Shown here: in pieces, positions 3,001 through 52,311 of the stretch
Position numbering within the stretch: position 1 is the stretch's first letter
How the letters are laid out: every line of letters begins with the position of its first letter
Virus record (IMG/VR): IMGVR_UViG_3300008050_000019
Origin: a virus
Direction: 5' to 3' (one strand)
Length of the DNA stretch: 64,000 nt
Translations under genes and position numbers: made by a program
The notes under the pieces: model-generated
The model's input: the letters and a program-made list of their open reading frames with translations, nothing else
What the model was told of the DNA's origin: nothing
Database searches by the model: none

Positions 3001-3369
3001 CTAACTATTGCAATAACCCTCGCAACAAACCAAATCTCCATTACAAATCTCTGGATAAATCTCAGTTGCTAGGCATAGCAGAACGCATTGCGACAGGTTA
3101 CCTGCGTCTGGTGGTCCGACGTCAACTGGATTAGCATCTAATGCTCCAGCGTCTATGAAGCCGGCGTCTATGAAGCCGGCATCAATGAAGCCGACGTCTG
3201 GCATACCCCCGTCATATAAAACTTCTCCAGCATCTGGCATTACACTTGCATCATAAAACCTGGTGGGTCTTTGGGCGGAAATTGCTGAGCTGCATCCCCT
3301 TGACCCACATTCATCACAGGCAGCTAAAGACAGAAGCGCAAGCGCCATAAATAATTTTCGTTTAAACAT
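3001..3369 (-). CDS. secreted lipoprotein with DAGFI repeats and Cys-rich C-terminus
   Basis: Signal peptide plus lipobox MALALLSLAAC. Three 15-nt tandem repeats at 3151-3195 encode (F)IDAG units. Confidence 0.65.
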   Translation of the reverse strand: MFKRKLFMALALLSLAACDECGSRGCSSAISAQRPTRFYDASVMPDAGEVLYDGGMPDVGFIDAGFIDAGFIDAGALDANPVDVGPPDAGNLSQCVLLCLATEIYPEICNGDLVCCEGYCNS

Positions 3370-3745: not shown

Positions 3746-3748
3746 ATA

Positions 3749-3822
3749 CACTCCCTAGTGGATTCGAACCACTGACCTTGAGCTTAGAAGGCTCCTGCGC
3801 TATCCAGCTGCGCTAAGGGAGT
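3749..3822 (-). tRNA. tRNA-Arg (anticodon TCT)
   Basis: Hand-folded cloverleaf: acceptor ACTCCCT/AGGGAGT, D arm GCGC-AGCTGGATA-GCGC, anticodon loop CTTCTAA, T arm AGTGG-TTCGAAT-CCACT. Confidence 0.85.
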
Positions 3823-4125
3823 AAATTGGCGCCACATTTAAAGCGCCTGCATATAGAATAGAATCATGTAATATACTACCGGGCCTATATACTCCCGGCA
3901 GGTAACCTGTATATGGTAAACTTGACATTGCCACGATTTATTATATGGCGACTTCTAAATGTCATGTGTCAAGCTCATTACATGATAATGATAAAGCTAT
4001 GGCTTTAATGTTCTAAGTCAGCGCATAATATTAACCCTCGTATTAAACTAATTGATTCCTCACGCTCAATCAGACGTTCGGCGTGTCGCAACCACAACAG
4101 CTGGCTAAGTAGCGTACTAGCCATA

Positions 4126-4210
4126 TGCTCAGAGCGGGAGTCGAACCCGCACTCCCATTAAGGGCGACGGATTTTAAATCCGTTGCGTCTACCAATTCCG
4201 CCATCCAAGC
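4126..4210 (-). tRNA. tRNA-Leu (anticodon TAA), type II with long variable arm
   Basis: Acceptor GCTTGGA/TCTGAGC, anticodon arm ACGGA-TTTAAAA-TCCGT, T arm GCGGG-TTCGACT-CCCGC. Confidence 0.85.
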
Positions 4211-4414
4211 TAATTTTCATTCAAGGTTATTTATTCCTTGTTAAAATATAATACCACCCTTTGAATTCAAAGATACTGTTATTTTTCATTAATTTAAATC
4301 AGTCAAGCTTTCTTAAACCAAGAAGCAGGAAATGGCATTCCCATACCCACTAAGCCATAATATACAGAACTGGCCTTGGTAGTTCAATCTTTATTATCTC
4401 ACCCATCTGTGTTC

Positions 4415-4720
4415 CTAAATGCTTTTATTCAAAGTAAATTCTGTCTGAGCAGGAAACACGATCGTTTTAATTCTGTAAGACTGATTCTTAAGTGTGTAGT
4501 TAACAACAGATAAACGGCCAGCAGACACTAATTCATTAACAAAGACAATCATTTTGTTTGCATCTAAGCCGCTAGGAAGAATAATATTTTCGTCATTCAA
4601 GTAATGTACTGAAGTGGATGCCAGCACTGTCAGTGTCATGGGTCCTTCTATGGTCACCTTATCAACCAAATAGTTTTTGAAATCGGCCTTTGTAAAAAAG
4701 GTACTCTTTTTTTTGTTCAC
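4415..4720 (-). CDS. hypothetical protein
   Basis: ORF track. The start abuts the 3' end of tRNA-Arg(CCT). Confidence 0.6.
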   Translation of the reverse strand: MNKKKSTFFTKADFKNYLVDKVTIEGPMTLTVLASTSVHYLNDENIILPSGLDANKMIVFVNELVSAGRLSVVNYTLKNQSYRIKTIVFPAQTEFTLNKSI

Positions 4721-4721
4721 A

Positions 4722-4795
4722 CGCCTCCTAGTGGACTCGAACCACCAACCTTAGGTTTAGGAAACCTACGCGCTATCCAATTGCGCCAAGGAGGC
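4722..4795 (-). tRNA. tRNA-Arg (anticodon CCT)
   Basis: Acceptor GCCTCCT/AGGAGGC, anticodon arm TAGGT-TTCCTAA-ACCTA, T arm GGTGG-TTCGAGT-CCACT. Confidence 0.9.
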
Positions 4796-4797
4796 AA

Positions 4798-4905
4798 TAT
4801 TCCAGCCCGGCTTTGAACCAGGATCTCTCTATTACGAGCGCTTTGACCGCTAAAAGATAAGCTAAGTAACCAAACTTCCGCCCATTCTTTTTTAAGCTAC
4901 TGGAT
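4798..4905 (-). other. tRNA-like element, unresolved (canonical T arm; possible degenerate, interrupted or pseudo tRNA)
   Basis: The T arm CCTGG-TTCAAAG-CCGGG is followed by CTGGAAT. The only 5' partner (AATCCAG, 1 mismatch) lies about 105 nt away. An internal hairpin AGCG-GTCAAAG-CGCT would give anticodon CAA. No standard cloverleaf could be folded by hand. Confidence 0.3.
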
Positions 4906-4911
4906 TACTGA

Positions 4912-4984
4912 TACGGCTGGGTGGAATTGAACCACCGACGTCCACCTTATAAGGATGGCGCTCTTACCCCTGAGCTACAGCCGT
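4912..4984 (-). tRNA. tRNA-Ile (anticodon TAT)
   Basis: Acceptor ACGGCTG/CAGCCGT, anticodon arm CCATC-CTTATAA-GGTGG, T arm GGTGG-TTCAATT-CCACC. Confidence 0.85.
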
Positions 4985-4989
4985 TTACT

Positions 4990-5382
4990 TTAAATGCTAT
5001 CTAAAACAGTTTGCATTTTATCTCGTACATCATCGAGCATTTCATCAATGGGGTCCATCTTCGCTCTAAGCTTATCATGCACCATCTCTTTAGCAGCTTC
5101 TTGTACATGGCGATCATAATCTCCAACCATCATGTCAACTATGTCAAGAAAGCGAAATGATTTCCCGTTAATAGTAAGCTCAACAGCAAAATTCCCGCCT
5201 TTCTCTTTTGCATCAAGAGCAACAGCTTCAACAATGCTTCTGTCTGCACTTATTAGGTTAAGAATTATTGTACCATACACGTTTTTGGAAGAACCTAGAA
5301 CGTCAATAGTACTAAAAGATTCTACACCATCTTTGTATGTAACATCAAAGGCTCTTTTAGTTTTACTTTTAATTTCTTCCAT
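4990..5382 (-). CDS. hypothetical protein
   Basis: ORF track, embedded between tRNA genes. Confidence 0.65.
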   Translation of the reverse strand: MEEIKSKTKRAFDVTYKDGVESFSTIDVLGSSKNVYGTIILNLISADRSIVEAVALDAKEKGGNFAVELTINGKSFRFLDIVDMMVGDYDRHVQEAAKEMVHDKLRAKMDPIDEMLDDVRDKMQTVLDSI

Positions 5383-5401
5383 CTTCTTTCTTTCTTTTAA
5401 A

Positions 5402-5474
5402 TGGGCCCAGAGGGATTCGAACCCCCGACAAAGGAGATATGAGCTCCCGACTCTAACCGCTGAGCTATAGGCCC
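5402..5474 (-). tRNA. tRNA-Met (anticodon CAT; an Ile2/lysidine type cannot be excluded)
   Basis: Acceptor GGGCCTA/TGGGCCC, anticodon arm GGGAG-CTCATAT-CTCCT, T arm GGGGG-TTCGAAT-CCCTC. No initiator hallmarks. Confidence 0.85.
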
Positions 5475-20908: not shown

Positions 20909-20980
20909 TATGATCAGAGGGACTCGAACCCTCAACATACCAGCCTGTAGTGCTGGGCTCTACCATTGAGCTATGATCAC
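20909..20980 (-). tRNA. tRNA-Val (anticodon TAC), non-canonical details
   Basis: Acceptor GTGATCA/TGATCAT, anticodon arm CCAGC-ACTACAG-GCTGG, T arm GAGGG-TTCGAGT-CCCTC. C rather than U at position 33 and no clear nt 26 in the hand fold. Confidence 0.7.
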
Positions 20981-34866: not shown

Positions 34867-36171
34867 TTACTCCGTTACTTCATTGTCTTCAGCAGTTTCG
34901 GTTGCCGGTTCAGCATCACCGTCAGTAAGAAGGTGCTTTTTTGCTAGGTCTGCGATGCCGGGCATCTTTTCCCCGATCTTTGTCGTAGCCAACATCCGCA
35001 TAAAGTGTGGACCGGCTTCAGGGTAGAAAACCTTGGCGTTGTTAAGGCTCGAGTTAATGATGCCGTTGAATAGTACAAAGCTAATTTCATCAGGTAATGT
35101 CTTCATTACGAATGCAAGGTTCTTTGCTTGCGGAACCGTTAGAGCGAGATCATCTTTCTCAACGTAAGCATTAAGCTTGTCTACAAGCGAAACAGACTCT
35201 TCTGGACGCAGTGCCTTAATTCTCTTCTCAGCGCGGTGCGCATCCTTAAGTAGCTCCTCAGGAGTGAGGATTGCATCTTGTTGCTCCATGAATTGGCTAA
35301 ATGCTCGAGCTGGAGTCGCACCGACGAAGCCCTTCATTACAGCATAAATAATATCCGGTTGTTGATCGATAAGACGACCTAGATTTCCGCGATTACGGAT
35401 AAGATGGTCACTTACCTTATGCCAGGAACGACGAGATGGTGTAATTTCCGTAGCATCCATCTGGGCCGCTTTTTCTGGTTTAACTTCAAAATGGCCTTCA
35501 TTACACTGCGAAATAAAGTCAATGACTTCATTACAAACCCACTGATTTCCGTACATCTCTCTTTGCTCATCGGTCATCCCTTCAGATGAGCGGCCCCAGT
35601 CCGTCCAATCTTTGAGATCAGGTTCAAGATCTGCAACCCAGAACCGATCGATGAATGCAGGATCCATCTGCGTAACATTATACTCCTTAGAGAAATTTAC
35701 AGCTGCGATGATCCGTGTTCCTTCATGGACCGTACGCCCATTTAGGCGGCCTTTCTCAACAAGCTCGAATGCAGCATTCTGCACTTCAGGTGTGCCACGG
35801 TTAATTTCATCAAGAAATAGTACGCAAGGCCGAAGTTGAGCCTCGAGAAACCAGTCAGGTGGAAGAAATTTCGTAACACGAAACCCACCAAGCTCCTCGT
35901 CATACTCAGACATCATCATTTGTTCGGACGTTAGGCCATCCTTAGGTGACTTTACCGCACCCCTGTCAGGAAGACCAATAATATCACCCTCGCTTAGCTG
36001 CGATACACGGCGTTCAATAACCGGAAGATTACCCCAAACCCGCGCCATTTGATAAGCAATTGCTGATTTACCGATTCCATGGGCCCCACGAATAAGTGCC
36101 GATTGGCGAGTGTCAAGAAATTTAAGTGCGTCAACCAGTCCACGGACTGTATAAGAAGATACTGCTGCCAT
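34867..36171 (-). CDS. MoxR/AAA_5-type AAA+ ATPase
   Basis: Walker A GAHGIGKSA, Walker B plus MoxR-type VLFLDEINRGTPEVQNAAFELV. Confidence 0.85.
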   Translation of the reverse strand: MAAVSSYTVRGLVDALKFLDTRQSALIRGAHGIGKSAIAYQMARVWGNLPVIERRVSQLSEGDIIGLPDRGAVKSPKDGLTSEQMMMSEYDEELGGFRVTKFLPPDWFLEAQLRPCVLFLDEINRGTPEVQNAAFELVEKGRLNGRTVHEGTRIIAAVNFSKEYNVTQMDPAFIDRFWVADLEPDLKDWTDWGRSSEGMTDEQREMYGNQWVCNEVIDFISQCNEGHFEVKPEKAAQMDATEITPSRRSWHKVSDHLIRNRGNLGRLIDQQPDIIYAVMKGFVGATPARAFSQFMEQQDAILTPEELLKDAHRAEKRIKALRPEESVSLVDKLNAYVEKDDLALTVPQAKNLAFVMKTLPDEISFVLFNGIINSSLNNAKVFYPEAGPHFMRMLATTKIGEKMPGIADLAKKHLLTDGDAEPATETAEDNEVTE

Positions 36172-39442: not shown

Positions 39443-39680
39443 CGCCTTTTTTTGCCTTTTTTAAGAAAAGAATATCTTCTCGTGATATTTTTTCTATTCT
39501 ATTATCTACATAGACGTTGCAGAAGGGTCCATGAGCCCATACATCATAACGTCTATGAAATGTCATGTTTGTTTTACCAGAATTAAAACCCTCTTGTAAC
39601 GAGAGAATTATTCCTATTTTATTTAATGATGATATCACAATAAGATCACCAATTTCATATAAAGTTTTATCTACACACAT
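39429..39680 (-). CDS. GDL-family small protein
   Basis: YEIGDLIVIS motif. Confidence 0.55.
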   Translation of the reverse strand: MCVDKTLYEIGDLIVISSLNKIGIILSLQEGFNSGKTNMTFHRRYDVWAHGPFCNVYVDNRIEKISREDILFLKKAKKGDGKK

Positions 39681-41532
39681 TTGAAAAAATTCCCCTTAGA
39701 ATGTTTGTGTATCGGGACGCATTTAGAGGATATAGTTCTATCAATCTTGCCACATCATTAAAGACTATAGAATCCCATTGCAGAAAGAACTGTGTTTGTG
39801 TTATTATATACATTTCGTATGCATCCCCTGGTGTGCATATACCTACACCACAGTTGCTCGTATTTAGCGCTACATCACTTTCATTGAACCCAGCAACTGT
39901 CTGGGCTGCTTCGTCTGTAATAAGAATGATGTAAGGGTATGCCCCTGTTGATGTTACAGTAGATTCTCTCCAATTGATAAGTGCTGGATTTGTGCTGTTC
40001 GCTAAATCATGAACTACATCGTATGAAGGCTCTACACCTGGATATGATGCGGTAAGATTGTTCAATGCTGCAGAAAATACAGTAAAATCAACGAGATTTA
40101 CTAGTACATTATAATTATCTCTTCTACCAGGAAATACAACTAAACCAAACCTATGTTCTGTCCCTTGAAAGTCTGCAACATAATTACTTATCCCTGCTTG
40201 CAGAGCGAACATAGCTTGTGTCATTGAACCTGAGCCATCTATCACAAAAATTATATCTACCTTATCATGTGGTGTAAGATCCTCATCGATGAGCCCATCA
40301 CAGTCATTGTCAACCCCATCACAAGATTCTTGCTCAGGATAAACTGGTCCAATGCAGCTTGACCAAATGCCTGAAGTGCATGTTCTCTCGCCTAAAACGC
40401 ATTGTCCGATACCAGCCGTAGCAGGATCTCCGCATGCGTCTGTTAACTCATCGATTGTGCCGTCGCAATCATCATCCCAGTTATTACACACTTCGGGCTC
40501 GGTAGCAAAAGAATAACATGTACCCCATACACCATTAGAATCGCATATTGAAATGCCGGTACCGCAATTGATAAGCTCTCCCGTAGCGTGATCTAAGACA
40601 TTTTGTCGGCATACTCTAGCGTCACCGACTGTACATGCACAATCTTCATCGATTATCCCATCACAGTCATTATCAAAACCATCACATATTTCTCGTACTG
40701 GTTTTCTAGCATTACACCCTATCCAGTTGCCCACGTTGCAACTTTCTATACCACTTTCACATGAGGTTCTGCATAACCTCTCAAGCCCTTCATCAATTGC
40801 ACCATTACAGTCATTATCAAAACCATCGCAAATTTCAGGCGAAGGGTGTACAGCACCAACGCAATATGTTTCTTCTGATGTACATATTTGAGTGCCAAGT
40901 TGACACAAACCAACTTCACTTGACGGGCCGCATGAATCTAAAATTTCTTCGTCAGTAATACCATCACAATTATTATCAAAACCATCGCAAGTTTCTGGTG
41001 TCGGCAAAATAACGCCTGTACATTGTCCCCACACACCATGAGTACACCTTTGTTTTCCAGTTCTGCAAACGCTAGGGCTAATATAACTGTCGACAGCTGG
41101 ACCAGTCCAGCAATCCCGTGAATAATTGTCAATTACACCATTACAGTCATTATCAAAACCATCGCAGATTTCTATCCCGCCTGGGTTTATTTCGGCTATA
41201 TTGTCGTTACAATCGTTATCACAAGAGTTGTAGCCATCACCATCACCATCATGTCCTTCGTCAACTAAACCATCGCAGTCATTGTCCAAACCATCACAGA
41301 TTTCATTAACTTGTCCGATGAACCCTTCACAAAATGCCATTTCATTTTTAGCATCGCATGAAGTAATCCCCTTTTGGCAAGTGCCAATAGAATCTTTAAG
41401 ATTATCTGTTATTATTTTTCCGTTATTTATTATACACGGGCGTGGGGACTGACATACTCTCGATAAGTTATCATCTTCACATGCAGCAATAAAAAGCAGG
41501 GAGATAGATAAAAGTATATATTTCAACTTCAT
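39667..41532 (-). CDS. secreted lipoprotein with 7-8 MopE-type CDGxDNDCDGxxDE modules and a C-terminal VWA domain
   Basis: Signal peptide plus lipobox LLFIAAC. Modules CDGLDNDCDGLVDE, CDGFDNDCNGVIDN, CDGFDNNCDGITDE and others. VWA MIDAS VIDGSGSM. Confidence 0.8.
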   Translation of the reverse strand: MKLKYILLSISLLFIAACEDDNLSRVCQSPRPCIINNGKIITDNLKDSIGTCQKGITSCDAKNEMAFCEGFIGQVNEICDGLDNDCDGLVDEGHDGDGDGYNSCDNDCNDNIAEINPGGIEICDGFDNDCNGVIDNYSRDCWTGPAVDSYISPSVCRTGKQRCTHGVWGQCTGVILPTPETCDGFDNNCDGITDEEILDSCGPSSEVGLCQLGTQICTSEETYCVGAVHPSPEICDGFDNDCNGAIDEGLERLCRTSCESGIESCNVGNWIGCNARKPVREICDGFDNDCDGIIDEDCACTVGDARVCRQNVLDHATGELINCGTGISICDSNGVWGTCYSFATEPEVCNNWDDDCDGTIDELTDACGDPATAGIGQCVLGERTCTSGIWSSCIGPVYPEQESCDGVDNDCDGLIDEDLTPHDKVDIIFVIDGSGSMTQAMFALQAGISNYVADFQGTEHRFGLVVFPGRRDNYNVLVNLVDFTVFSAALNNLTASYPGVEPSYDVVHDLANSTNPALINWRESTVTSTGAYPYIILITDEAAQTVAGFNESDVALNTSNCGVGICTPGDAYEMYIITQTQFFLQWDSIVFNDVARLIELYPLNASRYTNILRGIFSNVCR

Positions 41533-41948: not shown

Positions 41949-42233
41949 CTAGCGACGAGCACTAATTTTACCCTTTATTTCGCCTAATTTTCCAATTATT
42001 ATGATGTTTTGTTCAACAATTCTTTCTAATTTTTCGTCTTGCTTAGCAACGTCTTTTTCCAAATTAGCGATTCGTGCTTCAAGGACTCGCCCGTCTTCTC
42101 TAGAAAGATAATTCTTGGCGCCCATATCATTAACATAAGCAATGGCACCACCAGTTGCTATTACTATCGCAACTATCCAGCTCCCGAAATTCTTAAAGAG
42201 CGTTAGTGTATTATAGGACGTCATCTTGGGCAT
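41949..42233 (-). CDS. N-terminal TM plus coiled-coil protein (i-spanin-like architecture)
   Basis: TM WIVAIVIATGGAIAYV followed by a heptad-like segment. Confidence 0.5.
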   Translation of the reverse strand: MPKMTSYNTLTLFKNFGSWIVAIVIATGGAIAYVNDMGAKNYLSREDGRVLEARIANLEKDVAKQDEKLERIVEQNIIIIGKLGEIKGKISARR

Positions 42234-42492
42234 CTAGTATTTCCTCTATTTCCTCTATTTCCTTTAAAATCTCTTTTGTTTGGCTGCGAGCATGCTGTGT
42301 GGCATTAGCTGTTTGTGGCACATCAATTTGGAGTGTTCTTCTTGCCATCACGTAACTATTTTTATGTTCCTGAGTATATTGGTATGTTTGTGCAATATTA
42401 ATCTGGTTCAACGCTTCCGACTCCGGGTGTCCTTTGTCACATGAGACTATAGGTAAGACAAGCAAGACGATTGTTAGTATTTTATAACGCAC
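42211..42492 (-). CDS. small lipoprotein (o-spanin-like architecture)
   Basis: Lipobox LLVLPIVSC. Overlaps the next gene by 23 nt. Confidence 0.5.
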   Translation of the reverse strand: MRYKILTIVLLVLPIVSCDKGHPESEALNQINIAQTYQYTQEHKNSYVMARRTLQIDVPQTANATQHARSQTKEILKEIEEIEEILDAQDDVL

Positions 42493-48323: not shown

Positions 48324-48428
48324 TTAACCTTCCTGCTTGTCTATACAACATAAAACAATTAACATACATTCACTCTTAGGGATATCATAGATTTCACCAT
48401 CAGCAGAAATGTTGCTAGATTTCTCGCT
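48324..48428 (-). pseudogene. truncated remnant of a GDL-family paralogue
   Basis: A startless 34-codon frame reads ...SADGEIYDIPKSECMLIVLCC and matches the C-terminal IDGYIYNIPVH block. It is cut off by the 3' end of the 1298-aa gene. Confidence 0.35.
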
Positions 48429-51400
48429 TCACCTTAATATATCTCTCGGTTCTAAACAGTCTATTATTCGTAATATCTGTATCATTATAGAATATATGTC
48501 CGGTTATTGGGCATATATAAACTTGCCCAACGCCAGCGCCACCTGAAGGAGGGAATTCTGCCTGATCTTCAGAGCCGCCCTCATCATCTCTTGGTCTGAC
48601 ATCAGCATTTCTAACAATTTCCCAGGCTTCGTTCGTTTTCCCTAATTTAACTGCTGTTGCAAGAGTTAATTGCGTTGAAGAATCGACGGAAGCAATAACA
48701 TGTTCGTCAGTGATGATGCTACTTTCGACTACCCTAAATAAATCATTTACTGCAAATGATCCAGTCGCAAATGTATTACCTCCTGTGGCAGTAACCTGAT
48801 TTACAGCAGGCCCAGTTGAAAATGATGTTCCTGAATCTTGAATGAAAACGGCTCTGACTATATGGTTTGCCATGTAGTTGGTATCATTAGCAGTCAATAA
48901 CCTTTGATTATCACTATATCCGATATTGTCACCAGCAGCGTTCAAGGCGAAATTACCAGCCATATTAGGTGTTACAGCTGCTGTGCCCTGCCATTGGTAA
49001 AAAGCAAGTTTCCAATATCGTCTGGCACTATTTGTGCCGAATGATCCACTTCCACCTAATAATTCTAAATCAATAACAACTTCGTTAGGTGACGTTGCAA
49101 ATGAATCATTTGCAGCGGAGTCATCATGGAATGCATCGGTTCGCAAGTTCCATGCTGGATGATCTTCATTAGACTGGTACGATGAACGTAGAGTCCAGCT
49201 GCCAGAACCAGCAGCGTCAGTTGCGCTGTATAAGTCCATTTTAACATCTGCATATGTTGCAGCAGGCATTGCTTCCCATGCAAACCCCAATTTTGAAGTG
49301 ATTATATCTGCTTGTAGATCAATACCTGTTTGGAATCCAGCAGTTGTTGTTAATGTCCCGCCACTGCCTCCGATGGTCTGCGTGTTGTTTGTTCCGTCAA
49401 GCAGTAGTCTTCTCTGGTATGCAGCAAGCATTGCTGATGAGCTAGCAGCTAGCACAAAAATGTCATCAGATGTTACTGACGCTAATGAAGCAACATCCAG
49501 AAACCCGCCAACGCACGAATGTGATTCCGCAGTCTTAACAGATAAGGCTTCAGCAAGCGGCGATTCTATCAATTCGGTTTTTTGCGCAAAAATATCATAG
49601 CCCCAAGTAATTTCTTGCGTCGAGTCTTTAACAAGGCCTATTGATACAGGGAATGTGTAATATTCATCTTGAACAAATTCACTTCCACCAGTACCAGATC
49701 CAGAAAATGCTACTTCGACGCCATTTGCAAGTTTCTCTGAGCTAGAGTGTACTAGTTTTGTCGATGCAGCCGCCCTGTGATGAACTCTGCTTCTATACCA
49801 AGTTGATGATCCTGTGCTCCATTGCCATGATGTTGGGGTAGAAAAAACAAGGTCATGCCTTCCTATCGCAGCTCCATTTCTAGGCCTAAATATATATGCG
49901 ACCCCGCTATCATCAGTAAACCAATTGTAGCCATGACATTCAGTAGCCTCAGCCGCCTGCCAAGAACCTGGACTTCCCCCTATAGTACCTGTAGCGTCGA
50001 ATTCCTCACCGATACAGGTCCAGTTAAAGCTAGACACTTCTGATGTACCTGAATTAACAATCTGTATAGTATTATTATCCAAGACGCCAGTCACGACAAA
50101 AGAGCCGCTATTAATACTATTGGAGGTAGTTGACAATACTATCCTTTTACCAACATGATGCTCTGTAAAATCATCGGCTGGAATAACGACTTCTTGGACA
50201 AATTTGCCTCCTATGATCGTTGGTGAAGACATTGATGTTCCAGTGCCTGATCCAGATACAACCTTTCCATTCGGCTCAAGCAAGCCGATTGTTGATGCGG
50301 TGTCTGCAGAGAACCACGCTGCACCACCTGGAGCGACGGACACATGGTATGATACATCAGTCAGGCCATCATCGAGCGTGTCACCATAAAATCCTACGCC
50401 TATGTTATTTGATCCAGACAGCCATGAATCGATTGGGATTCGTGTGATATTTTTTGAAATGAATTGATTATCACCATTCTGTGTTGCAAGCCAAATGTCA
50501 TCGCTTTCTGGATCACCTGTATCTTTTCTATTTATGATAAGCGTGTTAATTGAACCAGACTGGCCGGCGACTCCAGCATTGAGACCTAAATGTATAAACC
50601 CGGCAGCATTGACTTCTGCTGTTGTATGCATACTATAATATGCATGTGAGAAGTCGCTGCCTTGTATGCTATTTAATCTCTGAATTCCTGTTGTATTGTT
50701 ACCTGCTGTCTGTGTAGATACCCAATATACATTTCCGCTTGAATCAACATCAATCAATGTACCATGGTTATTTCTAACCGCACTGGACCCTCTTGGTACA
50801 AATCCTGCTAAACCGCGAACAGAATCACTGTCAATCGTATTAAAATCTGAGCCTGCATCGCTAACTGTTACGACCGAACCACTTATAATCCCCGTCGATG
50901 TAAATACGTCAATGTATGACAATCCATCACGATGTAATGCCCAGACTCTATCTAGCTCTGCTGCGTTAGTATGAAGCCCTGACTTATCAATAGCAATACC
51001 CAGGGTATTATTGCTTTGTAGTCCGGCTACATCATAGATACCGCTTGCAGTTGTCCCTATAACATTTAACACTGCATCACCGGCAGCATCTATCATTATC
51101 AACGCACCTACGTCGGTGCCTGTATCATTAGTATCACCATCACTATCACATGCAAGATATAAATACCCGTTCCGGCCAGGCTTCAAGTCTCTGAATTGGA
51201 CGTTAGTTGGTAATGTGGGAAAAGCTGACAAAGCTTCTGTTGATATTGAGTCGCTTGCATCTTTCCTCGATGGCGTCTCACCAGTAAATCTTTTCCATGC
51301 CCATAGAGATCGTGAAGTTGTTGCATTCGCGTGATCATTAGTGGCCCTATCAGTTACTGTCCACCAAATCTTCCCTGATTTCCGGGGTGATGATCCAGAA

Positions 51401-52311
51401 CCAGCAGCCAAGCCATCAAAGCACATACCTGATATTATACTTGACACAGAGCTTGCGTTTGATGCTTGCGTCGGATAATCTATGACATATGGCACTTGAG
51501 TAGGCGCAGGAGTATCTGTATCACAGAATAAAGTCTGGATGTTGACGAACCCTCGTGATGTTGACGAGGCATTATACCGATCAGATAAAGTTTCAGCAGA
51601 GGTATAGCCGTCAGCCTCCGCAGCACCAGGAGCAAAAGCACCTACATAATATGGTTGTCTTATGAAGTAGTACTCAGCGTCATCACCCGCGCCATTTAAA
51701 TCGCCTGTTTTTGTAGCGAAAATTGAGTAAATATAGTGACCTTCTTCGCCCGTATTGGAGCCAGAAATTGCAGGACTGCCATTAGAGCCAGTGGCAAAAT
51801 CAAGGCATCCACTGCTAAACACTGATCCTACACCGAGCGGTGTAACAGCTGTTTCATTAAAAAATGCCTCACGCCCTGAGGGGTGTCCAAAAACGCTACC
51901 AATCTGCTTGAAATTGATATCGGTACTTGAAACAGCCGCATCGGGTGTCGTTGTAGTTGCCCGAGCGCTGATTCTTCCTTGAGCGTATGCGATCTGCGAT
52001 GGTTGCGCTGGGGCAAGGTTCGTAGTTGTTATGAATCTTCGAAGCCTCATGTATTGGCCTATGGAAGACAGGGCTGGCATTGAATTGTTTAAGCGCACAT
52101 TATAGTAGCTTAACTCTAAAGGTGATGTGCCCGACGCTTCATTTAGAATATGGTCTCCCTTGAACAACAGATCGCCATCGATAGCCACTGTTGATAATGC
52201 AGTTCCAGCAACCAATGAACGAAAAGCTCTTTCTGCCTCGTACTTATAAAGTACATTAGGTTTATAGACCCATGTCCCGTCGTCAAGTTTGATTTTTAAA
52301 TAGCCCTTCAT
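48415..52311 (-). CDS. very large (1298 aa) Ser/Thr/Gly/Ala-rich putative virion or fibre protein
   Basis: Longest ORF in the window, with composition typical of phage fibre or baseplate proteins. No specific motif recognised. Confidence 0.7.
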   Translation of the reverse strand: MKGYLKIKLDDGTWVYKPNVLYKYEAERAFRSLVAGTALSTVAIDGDLLFKGDHILNEASGTSPLELSYYNVRLNNSMPALSSIGQYMRLRRFITTTNLAPAQPSQIAYAQGRISARATTTTPDAAVSSTDINFKQIGSVFGHPSGREAFFNETAVTPLGVGSVFSSGCLDFATGSNGSPAISGSNTGEEGHYIYSIFATKTGDLNGAGDDAEYYFIRQPYYVGAFAPGAAEADGYTSAETLSDRYNASSTSRGFVNIQTLFCDTDTPAPTQVPYVIDYPTQASNASSVSSIISGMCFDGLAAGSGSSPRKSGKIWWTVTDRATNDHANATTSRSLWAWKRFTGETPSRKDASDSISTEALSAFPTLPTNVQFRDLKPGRNGYLYLACDSDGDTNDTGTDVGALIMIDAAGDAVLNVIGTTASGIYDVAGLQSNNTLGIAIDKSGLHTNAAELDRVWALHRDGLSYIDVFTSTGIISGSVVTVSDAGSDFNTIDSDSVRGLAGFVPRGSSAVRNNHGTLIDVDSSGNVYWVSTQTAGNNTTGIQRLNSIQGSDFSHAYYSMHTTAEVNAAGFIHLGLNAGVAGQSGSINTLIINRKDTGDPESDDIWLATQNGDNQFISKNITRIPIDSWLSGSNNIGVGFYGDTLDDGLTDVSYHVSVAPGGAAWFSADTASTIGLLEPNGKVVSGSGTGTSMSSPTIIGGKFVQEVVIPADDFTEHHVGKRIVLSTTSNSINSGSFVVTGVLDNNTIQIVNSGTSEVSSFNWTCIGEEFDATGTIGGSPGSWQAAEATECHGYNWFTDDSGVAYIFRPRNGAAIGRHDLVFSTPTSWQWSTGSSTWYRSRVHHRAAASTKLVHSSSEKLANGVEVAFSGSGTGGSEFVQDEYYTFPVSIGLVKDSTQEITWGYDIFAQKTELIESPLAEALSVKTAESHSCVGGFLDVASLASVTSDDIFVLAASSSAMLAAYQRRLLLDGTNNTQTIGGSGGTLTTTAGFQTGIDLQADIITSKLGFAWEAMPAATYADVKMDLYSATDAAGSGSWTLRSSYQSNEDHPAWNLRTDAFHDDSAANDSFATSPNEVVIDLELLGGSGSFGTNSARRYWKLAFYQWQGTAAVTPNMAGNFALNAAGDNIGYSDNQRLLTANDTNYMANHIVRAVFIQDSGTSFSTGPAVNQVTATGGNTFATGSFAVNDLFRVVESSIITDEHVIASVDSSTQLTLATAVKLGKTNEAWEIVRNADVRPRDDEGGSEDQAEFPPSGGAGVGQVYICPITGHIFYNDTDITNNRLFRTERYIKVKREI

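Follow-up and report, generated by a model that had tools for sequence, protein, structure and literature searches.

The 64,000-nucleotide sequence of the IMG/VR virus record IMGVR_UViG_3300008050_000019 (the whole of this stretch of DNA is referred to here as the window) contains, on its minus strand at positions 39667..41532, a gene encoding a 621-amino acid (aa) protein in which a lipoprotein signal is followed by a stalk of MopE-type modules and then by a C-terminal VWA domain. The gene is complete, as indicated by its open reading frame (ORF), which ends with a stop codon at 39667-39669, as well as by Pfam matches, full-length homologues, and an AlphaFold2 model. Here, we describe the architecture, distribution, and possible function of this lipoprotein, which is probably an integrin-like binding protein exported by the infected cell.

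Domain Architecture of the Lipoprotein

The features of the lipoprotein gene described below all lie on the minus strand. The protein starts with MKLKYILLSISLLFIAAC, in which a basic n-region precedes a hydrophobic core and then the lipobox I-A-A-C18. These are the elements of a signal peptidase II (SPII) signal, including a lipobox of the form [LVI][ASTVI][GAS]C inside the first ~35 residues. Based on the sequence and on family statistics, the signal peptide occupies residues 1-17 (41482..41532), with K2 and K4 in the n-region and the core ILLSISLLFIA; the lipobox covers residues 15-18 (41479..41490), and Cys18 is the predicted lipid acceptor and first residue of the mature protein. A hydrophobic region followed by Cys is present in 118 of the 121 family sequences, and K or R is found in the n-region of 116; the three sequences lacking a signal resemble truncated start calls. 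Position -1 of the 118 lipobox sequences is G, A, or S in 111 cases and position -3 is mostly L or F. C18 is invariant in our family alignment (A1, 56 sequences, also used for the profile, the invariance analysis, and the AlphaFold2 model), and lipoboxes begin the members of a distant subfamily and the short variants as well. The lipoprotein signal (LLFIAAC) recognized in an initial annotation of this DNA is thus strongly supported, and such a canonical, family-wide lipobox predicts lipidation and cleavage at Cys18 by the SPII route. At least one acidic residue is found at positions +2 to +5 after the Cys in 109 of the 118 sequences and a basic one in only four; in the protein itself, this acidic segment (C-E-D-D-N) leads into a Cys-rich N-terminal segment (residues 19-76, 41305..41478).

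The stalk proper is an array of seven MopE-type modules (residues 77-420, 40273..41304), which was delineated by Pfam, a regular-expression motif map, invariant Cys residues, and the model. The Pfam family PF11617 (Cu-binding_MopE, a putative metal-binding motif) matches with 133 bits against a gathering cutoff of 27 (E=4e-39) in seven stretches, and the motif map places seven E-x-C-D-G-x-D-N-D-C-D/N-G-x-x-D-E cores at residues 79-92 (core 1, CDGLDNDCDGLVDE, 41257..41298), 123-136 (core 2, 41125..41166), 182-195 (core 3, 40948..40989), 235-248 (core 4, 40789..40830), 283-296 (core 5, 40645..40686), 349-362 (core 6, CNNWDDDCDGTIDE, 40447..40488), and 404-417 (core 7, 40282..40323). The last of these directly abuts the VWA domain and is the most conserved module (column conservation 0.79). 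One additional degenerate segment near C104/C108 (extended to residues 95-122, DGDGDGYNSCDNDCNDNIAEINPGGIEI, 41167..41250) was recognized by phmmer, the family profile, and Pfam, whose best stretch is residues 107-135; the seven to eight modules initially reported therefore correspond to seven canonical copies and a degenerate one. Each core is preceded by a three-Cys stretch, and the modules are modeled as short beta-hairpins with a predicted local distance difference test (pLDDT) score of 80-95. The AlphaFold2 model as a whole has a mean pLDDT of 88, with 584 of the 621 residues at pLDDT >=70, and a predicted template modeling (pTM) score of 0.47. This combination of high pLDDT and low pTM is as expected for confidently modeled modules whose mutual arrangement is loosely defined, like beads on a string.

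Asp (13%), Gly (12%), and Cys (11%) are abundant in the stalk (residues 19-420). The protein has 47 Cys residues, i.e., the lipid acceptor and 46 others, and the stalk holds 43 Cys. All stalk and module Cys residues, including C27, C33, C52, and C68, are invariant in A1. Further information comes from two VWA positions, 438 and 495 (numbering of the protein described here, which lacks Cys at both): Cys residues occur at both positions in 43 sequences and at neither in 13, and never singly. Such all-or-none co-variation marks a genuine disulfide and hence folding outside the cytoplasm, which supports a predicted oxidative folding of the lipoprotein in the extracytoplasmic space.

Fold searches assigned no solved fold to the stalk modules, all top matches coming from the VWA part. 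The only solved chain related in sequence to the stalk is the N-terminus of MopE: residues 95-142, which comprise the degenerate segment and core 2, align with residues 6-53 of PDB 2VOV (phmmer, E=0.012), and the A1 profile matches chain residues 4-44 (E=3e-3), both matches being weak and short. PF11617 is also detected in distant homologues (62-64 bits in L044 and L028). The high-affinity Cu(I) site of MopE* consists of His132, His203, and kynurenine-130 (derived from Trp130), whereas for the Asp-rich N-terminal segment of MopE a role as a weak Cu(II) site has been raised as a possibility. No counterpart of the Cu(I) site was found in the lipoprotein, as the alignment stops at chain residue 53 and the cores lack conserved His or Trp; the aligned Asp-rich MopE segment contains no His either. 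On these sequence grounds, copper binding should not be assumed.

The VWA domain (integrin I-domain-like; residues 421-621, 39670..40272) includes a C561-C566 loop and an invariant C-terminal C620. In single-sequence Pfam searches it just misses the cutoffs for VWA (PF00092, 22.8 versus 23.8 bits) and VWA_2 (22.4 versus 27 bits), and a few homologues do carry precomputed PF00092 or PF13519 matches. With the A1 profile, matches were obtained to the I-domain of integrin alpha-X (E=4.9e-6) and to 27 further VWA chains (26 from integrins and one from ITIH4), and the alpha/beta Rossmann-like fold of VWA domains is present. [quoted passage not shown] The first three lie in D432-G-S434-G-S436 (40225..40239), which aligns with the integrin DGSGS motif, and the fifth MIDAS residue, D540 (39913..39915), lies in I-T-D-E, which aligns with integrin ITDG. 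The fourth position, that of the alpha-I MIDAS Thr, is occupied by an invariant Glu, E501 (40030..40032) in G-x-E-P-S-Y-D, whose counterpart in the integrin alpha-X I-domain (1N3Y) is the first Thr of GFTYTATA. We take a Glu at this position to be a beta-integrin-type MIDAS. Profile matches to integrin I-domains and an invariant MIDAS thus establish as real the VWA domain first noticed from the string VIDGSGSM. Conservation of the VWA domain is uniformly high and equals that of the stalk, which argues for a conserved ligand.

Homologous Family and Gene Neighborhood

The lipoprotein has no NCBIfam family, and no PHROG family, structural families included, was matched at E<0.1. A search of a large protein collection returned 5,872 matches, most of which are presumably driven by the repeats, and the following figures are from the best 120 clusters. 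All are full-length (584-663 aa), 41-52% identical, and of metagenomic origin, on contigs up to ~210 kb. In IMG/VR, 54 viral-contig loci carry the gene, with 28-50% identity and contigs up to 281 kb. The distant members retain the same lipobox/MopE/VWA plan, the VWA domain having DWSGSM, INWR, and (T/S)DE. More distant and shorter versions are present in other phage lineages. A second tier of 380-420-aa proteins represents short versions of the same design; two of them are found on phage-like contigs together with DnaB, a RecA-like protein, RNA ligase, and HNH. When the VWA part alone was used in an exhaustive HMMER search against 1.84 billion cluster representatives, only 192 matches were obtained (62 at E<=1e-10); in the full-length members among them (about 585-740 aa) the VWA domain is always C-terminal.

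Two contigs (206 and 210 kb) maintain the order ClpP, Amidase_2, GroEL, small ORFs, and lipoprotein gene, with DUF2201 nearby. Among 61 related loci, GroEL co-occurs in 19, the MoxR AAA gene in 18, and DUF2201 in 16, all within the close subfamily, and the small ORFs flanking the lipoprotein gene are not conserved. VanY/Amidase_2 peptidoglycan hydrolases and ClpP were observed within 10 kb of a homologue on related contigs (L004, 12194-12841; L001, 3339-4268), and no VanY, Amidase_2, or ClpP homologue was identified among the window ORFs scanned.

Outside phage-like contigs, a cellular surface protein of 3,263 aa (L142, 117-9908, plus strand) has a T4SS_pilin N-terminus, TIG and Big_5 domains, and a MopE module plus VWA at its end. 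Its VWA is 34% identical to the phage VWA (E=1.5e-10), and the MopE plus VWA unit is thus also employed at the far end of a very large surface protein. A separate TSP3_bac-domain gene lies two genes downstream of it.

Comparison of the lipoprotein (tblastn) and of the 30-50 kb region (megablast) with 50,697 deposited phage records gave no match, and no description of phage MopE/VWA lipoproteins was found in the literature searched.

Origin of the Gene and the Question of the Host

To examine the cellular distribution, one genome per GTDB species was scanned, and the 79 loci considered here represent the 80 best of 554 confirmed matches. The whole architecture is found in only two of them, L060 and L061, of which the former also has GroEL, MoxR, and DUF2201, whereas in the latter a sigma factor of phage type follows just downstream. 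The two appear to be phage contigs mis-binned into metagenome-assembled genomes (MAGs). The other 77 loci, mostly from Myxococcota, Bradymonadia, or Polyangia, match residues ~20-460 only, i.e., the generic repeats, and have no further gene in common with the window except for generic sigma-70 matches and one match to a small Cys-rich lipoprotein. The initial annotation was therefore right about the abundance of MopE repeats in Myxococcota and their relatives.

It had also viewed the protein as possibly host-derived and not a normal phage protein, and as a clue to host identity. In its strongest form, this idea would make the gene a recently acquired cellular adhesin (a moron) whose closest cellular relatives mark the host as a member of Myxococcota or Bdellovibrionota, which would fit the dominance of Myxococcota, Bradymonadia, and Polyangia among the repeat-region matches as well as the presence of the lipoprotein VWA adhesins CglB and CglD in Myxococcus. 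We consider such a recent acquisition quite unlikely. Nearly all instances of the complete architecture are on phage-like contigs, and the VWA subtype, found in only 192 cluster representatives by the exhaustive search, keeps its C-terminal place in all full-length members. The gene has the mean GC content of the window genes (0.407, against 0.407 +/- 0.032) and shares their codon usage. The deep divergence of the family (28-52% identity), together with synteny in the close subfamily, implies long residence in phages, and the sequences thus indicate a long-standing phage gene rather than a recently borrowed one. Because the cellular similarity is limited to the generic repeats, the host is not readable from the lipoprotein gene. 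The best matches are other phage proteins without host-lineage bias, in contexts that are non-structural rather than structural. Of the host-derived adhesin or surface remodeler initially suggested, it is the host derivation that is not supported, whereas adhesin or remodeler is still the most plausible role.

Other features of the window are similarly uninformative about the host. In tblastn searches against deposited phages, GroEL and rIIA matched remote relatives only, with identities no higher than 49% and 39%, respectively, and with mixed hosts, and therefore provide neither a cultured relative nor a host clue. Shine-Dalgarno use is weak. Most window genes have no recognizable Shine-Dalgarno sequence within 20 nucleotides of the start, and several adjoin or overlap one another; this may reflect the translation initiation style of the host. 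The acidic residues at +2 to +5 resemble the lipoprotein export signal of Bacteroidota, but could simply reflect acidic composition. The Bacteroidota -7 element TAnnTTTG is not enriched in the window (74 found versus 68 +/- 8 expected).

Genomic Context of the Window

The window encodes rIIA, rIIB, DNA and RNA ligases, a 5'-3' exonuclease, GroEL, NUDIX, a sigma-70-type factor, and a MoxR-type AAA protein with a DUF2201 partner, as well as six tRNAs, and nearly all of its genes are on one strand. It looks like part of a large phage. Because no capsid or terminase gene was found within the 64 kb, the viral assignment rests on these phage-type genes and on the IMG/VR relatives. The lipoprotein gene lies between NUDIX/GroEL and the sigma factor, and all of its identifiable neighbors are non-structural.

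Two plus-strand ORFs inside the lipoprotein gene are not genes: a His-rich one of 63 aa (41118..41309), whose 16 His codons lie over D/G/N codon pairs of the lipoprotein gene, and a second one of 65 aa (40761..40958). As proposed initially, they are antisense artifacts, by-products of GAT-rich Asp/Gly/Asn codons. Of two features just upstream of the ATG of the lipoprotein gene, the motif TAGTATA shows no enrichment (9 found versus 9.5 expected) and a hairpin is not significant (z=-1.2).

Two additional predicted lipoproteins were noted, both on the minus strand. One of 93 aa (MRYKILTIVLLVLPIVSC...) overlaps by 23 nucleotides a 94-aa ORF that has a hydrophobic N-terminal segment, a charged, coiled-coil-like C-terminal part, and homologues in only three loci. 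The pair, at 41949-42492, is reminiscent of spanins, but the lipoprotein gene comes first. The other, encoded at 3001-3369, has 122 aa with nine Cys (MFKRKLFMALALLSLAACDEC...) and a post-Cys sequence like that of the 621-aa lipoprotein; its one blastp match is in an Archangium MAG locus.

Several other features were found on the minus strand. Five tRNA genes, Arg(TCT), Leu(TAA), Arg(CCT), Ile(TAT), and Met(CAT), lie at 3748-5474, and tRNA-Val(TAC) at 20909-20980 is immediately upstream of the rIIA start codon. The gene at 30704-33280 encodes a major-vault-protein-like protein of 858 aa (Pfam MVP_shoulder, E=3.8e-19; Vault_3, E=2.5e-8), which is phage-encoded and has no PHROG family. It adjoins the genes at 33433-36171 for a MoxR-type AAA_5 ATPase (434 aa) and then a DUF2201 metallopeptidase/VWA-like protein (477 aa), a pair that is found within 10 kb of the lipoprotein homologue in 16-18 related loci. 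Neither Pfam nor PHROG gave any match for the largest ORF of the window (48415-52311, 1,298 aa).

Proposed Function and Alternative Explanations

Taken together, these observations suggest, with moderate confidence that concerns the molecular description, that the lipoprotein is an exported, lipid-anchored, integrin-like binding protein made in the infected cell and not a part of the virion. The SPII signal would route the protein through Sec, Cys18 would be diacylglycerylated, and the signal would be cut before Cys18. The 46 remaining Cys residues would form disulfides in the oxidizing extracytoplasmic space, and the seven tandem Cys/Asp modules would make a stiff, elongated stalk whose D/N-rich loops, by analogy, probably bind Ca2+ and not copper. 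This stalk would hold out the VWA domain, whose intact MIDAS (D-x-S-x-S ... E ... D) is predicted to bind an acidic group of the ligand through a divalent cation. The infected cell would thus carry, on or in its envelope, a membrane-anchored module that binds in integrin-like fashion, with the inner membrane, the periplasmic face of the outer membrane, and the cell surface as candidate locations. An infected-cell rather than a virion protein is suggested because the neighbors are non-structural and the neighborhood is conserved in the close subfamily.

Several points weigh against this proposal. No partner gene is co-conserved beside the lipoprotein gene, and no consistent upstream ORF with transmembrane (TM), coiled-coil, or lipoprotein features was found in 15 related loci. 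Ca2+ binding by the loops is an analogy; no TSP_3 or EGF match was found at E<=1 in the Pfam scan, whose filters drop most matches above ~0.1, and the MopE segment that aligns with the stalk is apparently not visible in the crystal structure, for which Gly47 is reported as the N-terminus. Jumbo phages can have scattered structural genes, so that the genomic context is weak evidence against a virion role. The equal conservation of VWA domain and stalk speaks against a target that evolves fast, such as a phage receptor. Finally, a Bacteroidota host receives no support from the weak Shine-Dalgarno use or from the -7 element.

The biological role is the least certain step. Our leading candidate, held tentatively, is the masking or sequestering of a conserved envelope component or receptor, as T5 Llp does, which would keep superinfecting phages out or prevent progeny from adhering to debris. 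Altered adhesion of the infected cell comes second and is possible, with a distinctly lower probability; adhesive use of the MopE plus VWA unit has a precedent in the 3,263-aa cellular surface protein. A bolder idea, which we regard as rather unlikely, is that large uncultured phages display their own integrin-like adhesin on the infected cell and thereby reprogram its adhesion. The cell would then stick to neighboring hosts, particles, or biofilm matrix, favoring transmission, and the combination of lipid anchor, Ca2+/disulfide stalk, and MIDAS head would have evolved in phages, convergently with metazoan integrins and myxobacterial CglD.

A location in the virion, where stalk and VWA on the tail or capsid would bind the host or particles outside the cell as an adhesin or receptor-binding accessory, seems improbable. 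VWA domains do occur in phage virion proteins, such as a 'virion structural protein' of Pseudomonas phage PaMx28 (a BFVD match), disulfide- and Ca-stabilized modules would suit extracellular life, and the possible scattering of structural genes mentioned above leaves room for this explanation. However, the SPII lipobox and its acceptor Cys are invariant or near-invariant across the family, and the co-varying disulfide implies extracytoplasmic folding, yet virions of tailed phages assemble in the cytoplasm; in addition, the identifiable neighbors are all non-structural and PHROG provides no structural match.

A lysis function, in which the protein would act as an oversized, outer-membrane spanin-like tether across the periplasm, appears highly improbable. 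The protein is a lipoprotein whose seven-module stalk could, by our estimate, plausibly span the periplasm, Amidase_2 and VanY hydrolases are within 10 kb on related contigs, and in the window the ORFs just upstream include one for a small lipoprotein and one with TM/coiled-coil features. At 621 aa, however, it is far bigger than the small lipoproteins described as o-spanins, no TM/coiled-coil partner is conserved next to it across the 15 related loci, and a disulfide-locked stalk would presumably be ill-suited to the conformational collapse that spanins need. We know of no VWA domains in spanins. Scavenging of copper or another metal in the manner of MopE, an idea encouraged by the Pfam name 'Cu-binding_MopE' and by the possible weak Cu(II) site in the Asp-rich MopE segment, has very little probability given that the Cu(I) site of MopE* lies outside the aligned region (chain residues 4-53), that the cores lack conserved His or Trp, and that an invariant MIDAS VWA head would be left unexplained.

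What is new here is a large, conserved, and unannotated phage family that joins these elements; the domains, the architectural logic, and phage surface lipoproteins as such are already known. If the exported integrin-like binding protein is accepted, a widespread group of uncultured large phages, with contigs up to ~210 kb (up to ~281 kb for the distant versions), has kept such a protein over long evolutionary distances, and phage and prokaryote annotation has missed it, as the family has no PHROG family, no NCBIfam model, and no deposited phage genome. It would add a new architecture to the few phage proteins that act outside the infected cell, and would offer a clean test system with an invariant MIDAS that can be mutated, a 43-Cys stalk that can be reduced, and a predicted Ca2+ dependence. 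It also advises caution in host prediction: MopE-type repeats point to Myxococcota since this phylum is rich in such repeats, not because it is the source of the gene.

Comparison with Known Systems

Phage-encoded lipoproteins of the envelope are represented by Llp of T5, Cor of phi80 and N15, and Ltp of Streptococcus thermophilus TP-J34, which, like the lipoprotein described here, are non-structural, lipobox-bearing, and exported to the envelope. Llp and Cor block FhuA. All three are small, have neither MopE nor VWA domains, and show no sequence relationship to the lipoprotein, which has no PHROG match. Ltp is described as a surface-exposed superinfection-exclusion lipoprotein (PMC3952083).

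MopE shares with the lipoprotein the PF11617 motif, and it is the Asp-rich N-terminal part of MopE* that aligns with residues 95-142. MopE has one copy of the motif together with a beta-rich copper domain, whereas in the lipoprotein there are seven copies, framed by disulfides, as well as a VWA domain.

With regard to architecture, CglD of Myxococcus xanthus may be considered the closest functional analogue and CglB the second, the similarity being architectural only. CglD is a 1,130-aa, beta-integrin-like surface lipoprotein with an N-terminal lipobox that combines acidic DxDxDG repeats predicted to bind Ca2+ with a Cys-rich stalk and a VWA domain bearing a functional MIDAS; its disulfides give a mobility shift sensitive to dithiothreitol, and its importance for gliding depends on Ca2+. 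Lipid anchor, Ca/Cys stalk, and VWA thus follow each other in the same order as in the phage lipoprotein, suggesting a common logic of anchor, spacer, and head. The repeats of CglD, compared here by description only, match COMP/thrombospondin and EGF-like folds and not PF11617. Furthermore, CglD works with the Glt gliding machinery of the cell, whereas the lipoprotein gene belongs to phages; the annotated genes around it and its homologues include no glt or agl. CglB, a 416-aa outer-membrane/surface lipoprotein adhesin with 17 Cys and an alpha-I-domain-like VWA, whose function is abolished by the MIDAS mutation D56A, likewise combines a lipid anchor, many structural disulfides, and a VWA with MIDAS. 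It differs in having Thr at the fourth MIDAS position in place of E501, and a beta-jellyroll domain, and in lacking MopE modules.

The VWA domain itself shows only 10-19% identity to integrin I-domains and to those of the adhesin tips Mfa5, LapA, PilB, RrgA, and SpaC. In those systems the domain is presented on pili, RTX adhesins, or integrin heterodimers, whereas in the phage family it is carried by a lipid-anchored MopE stalk.

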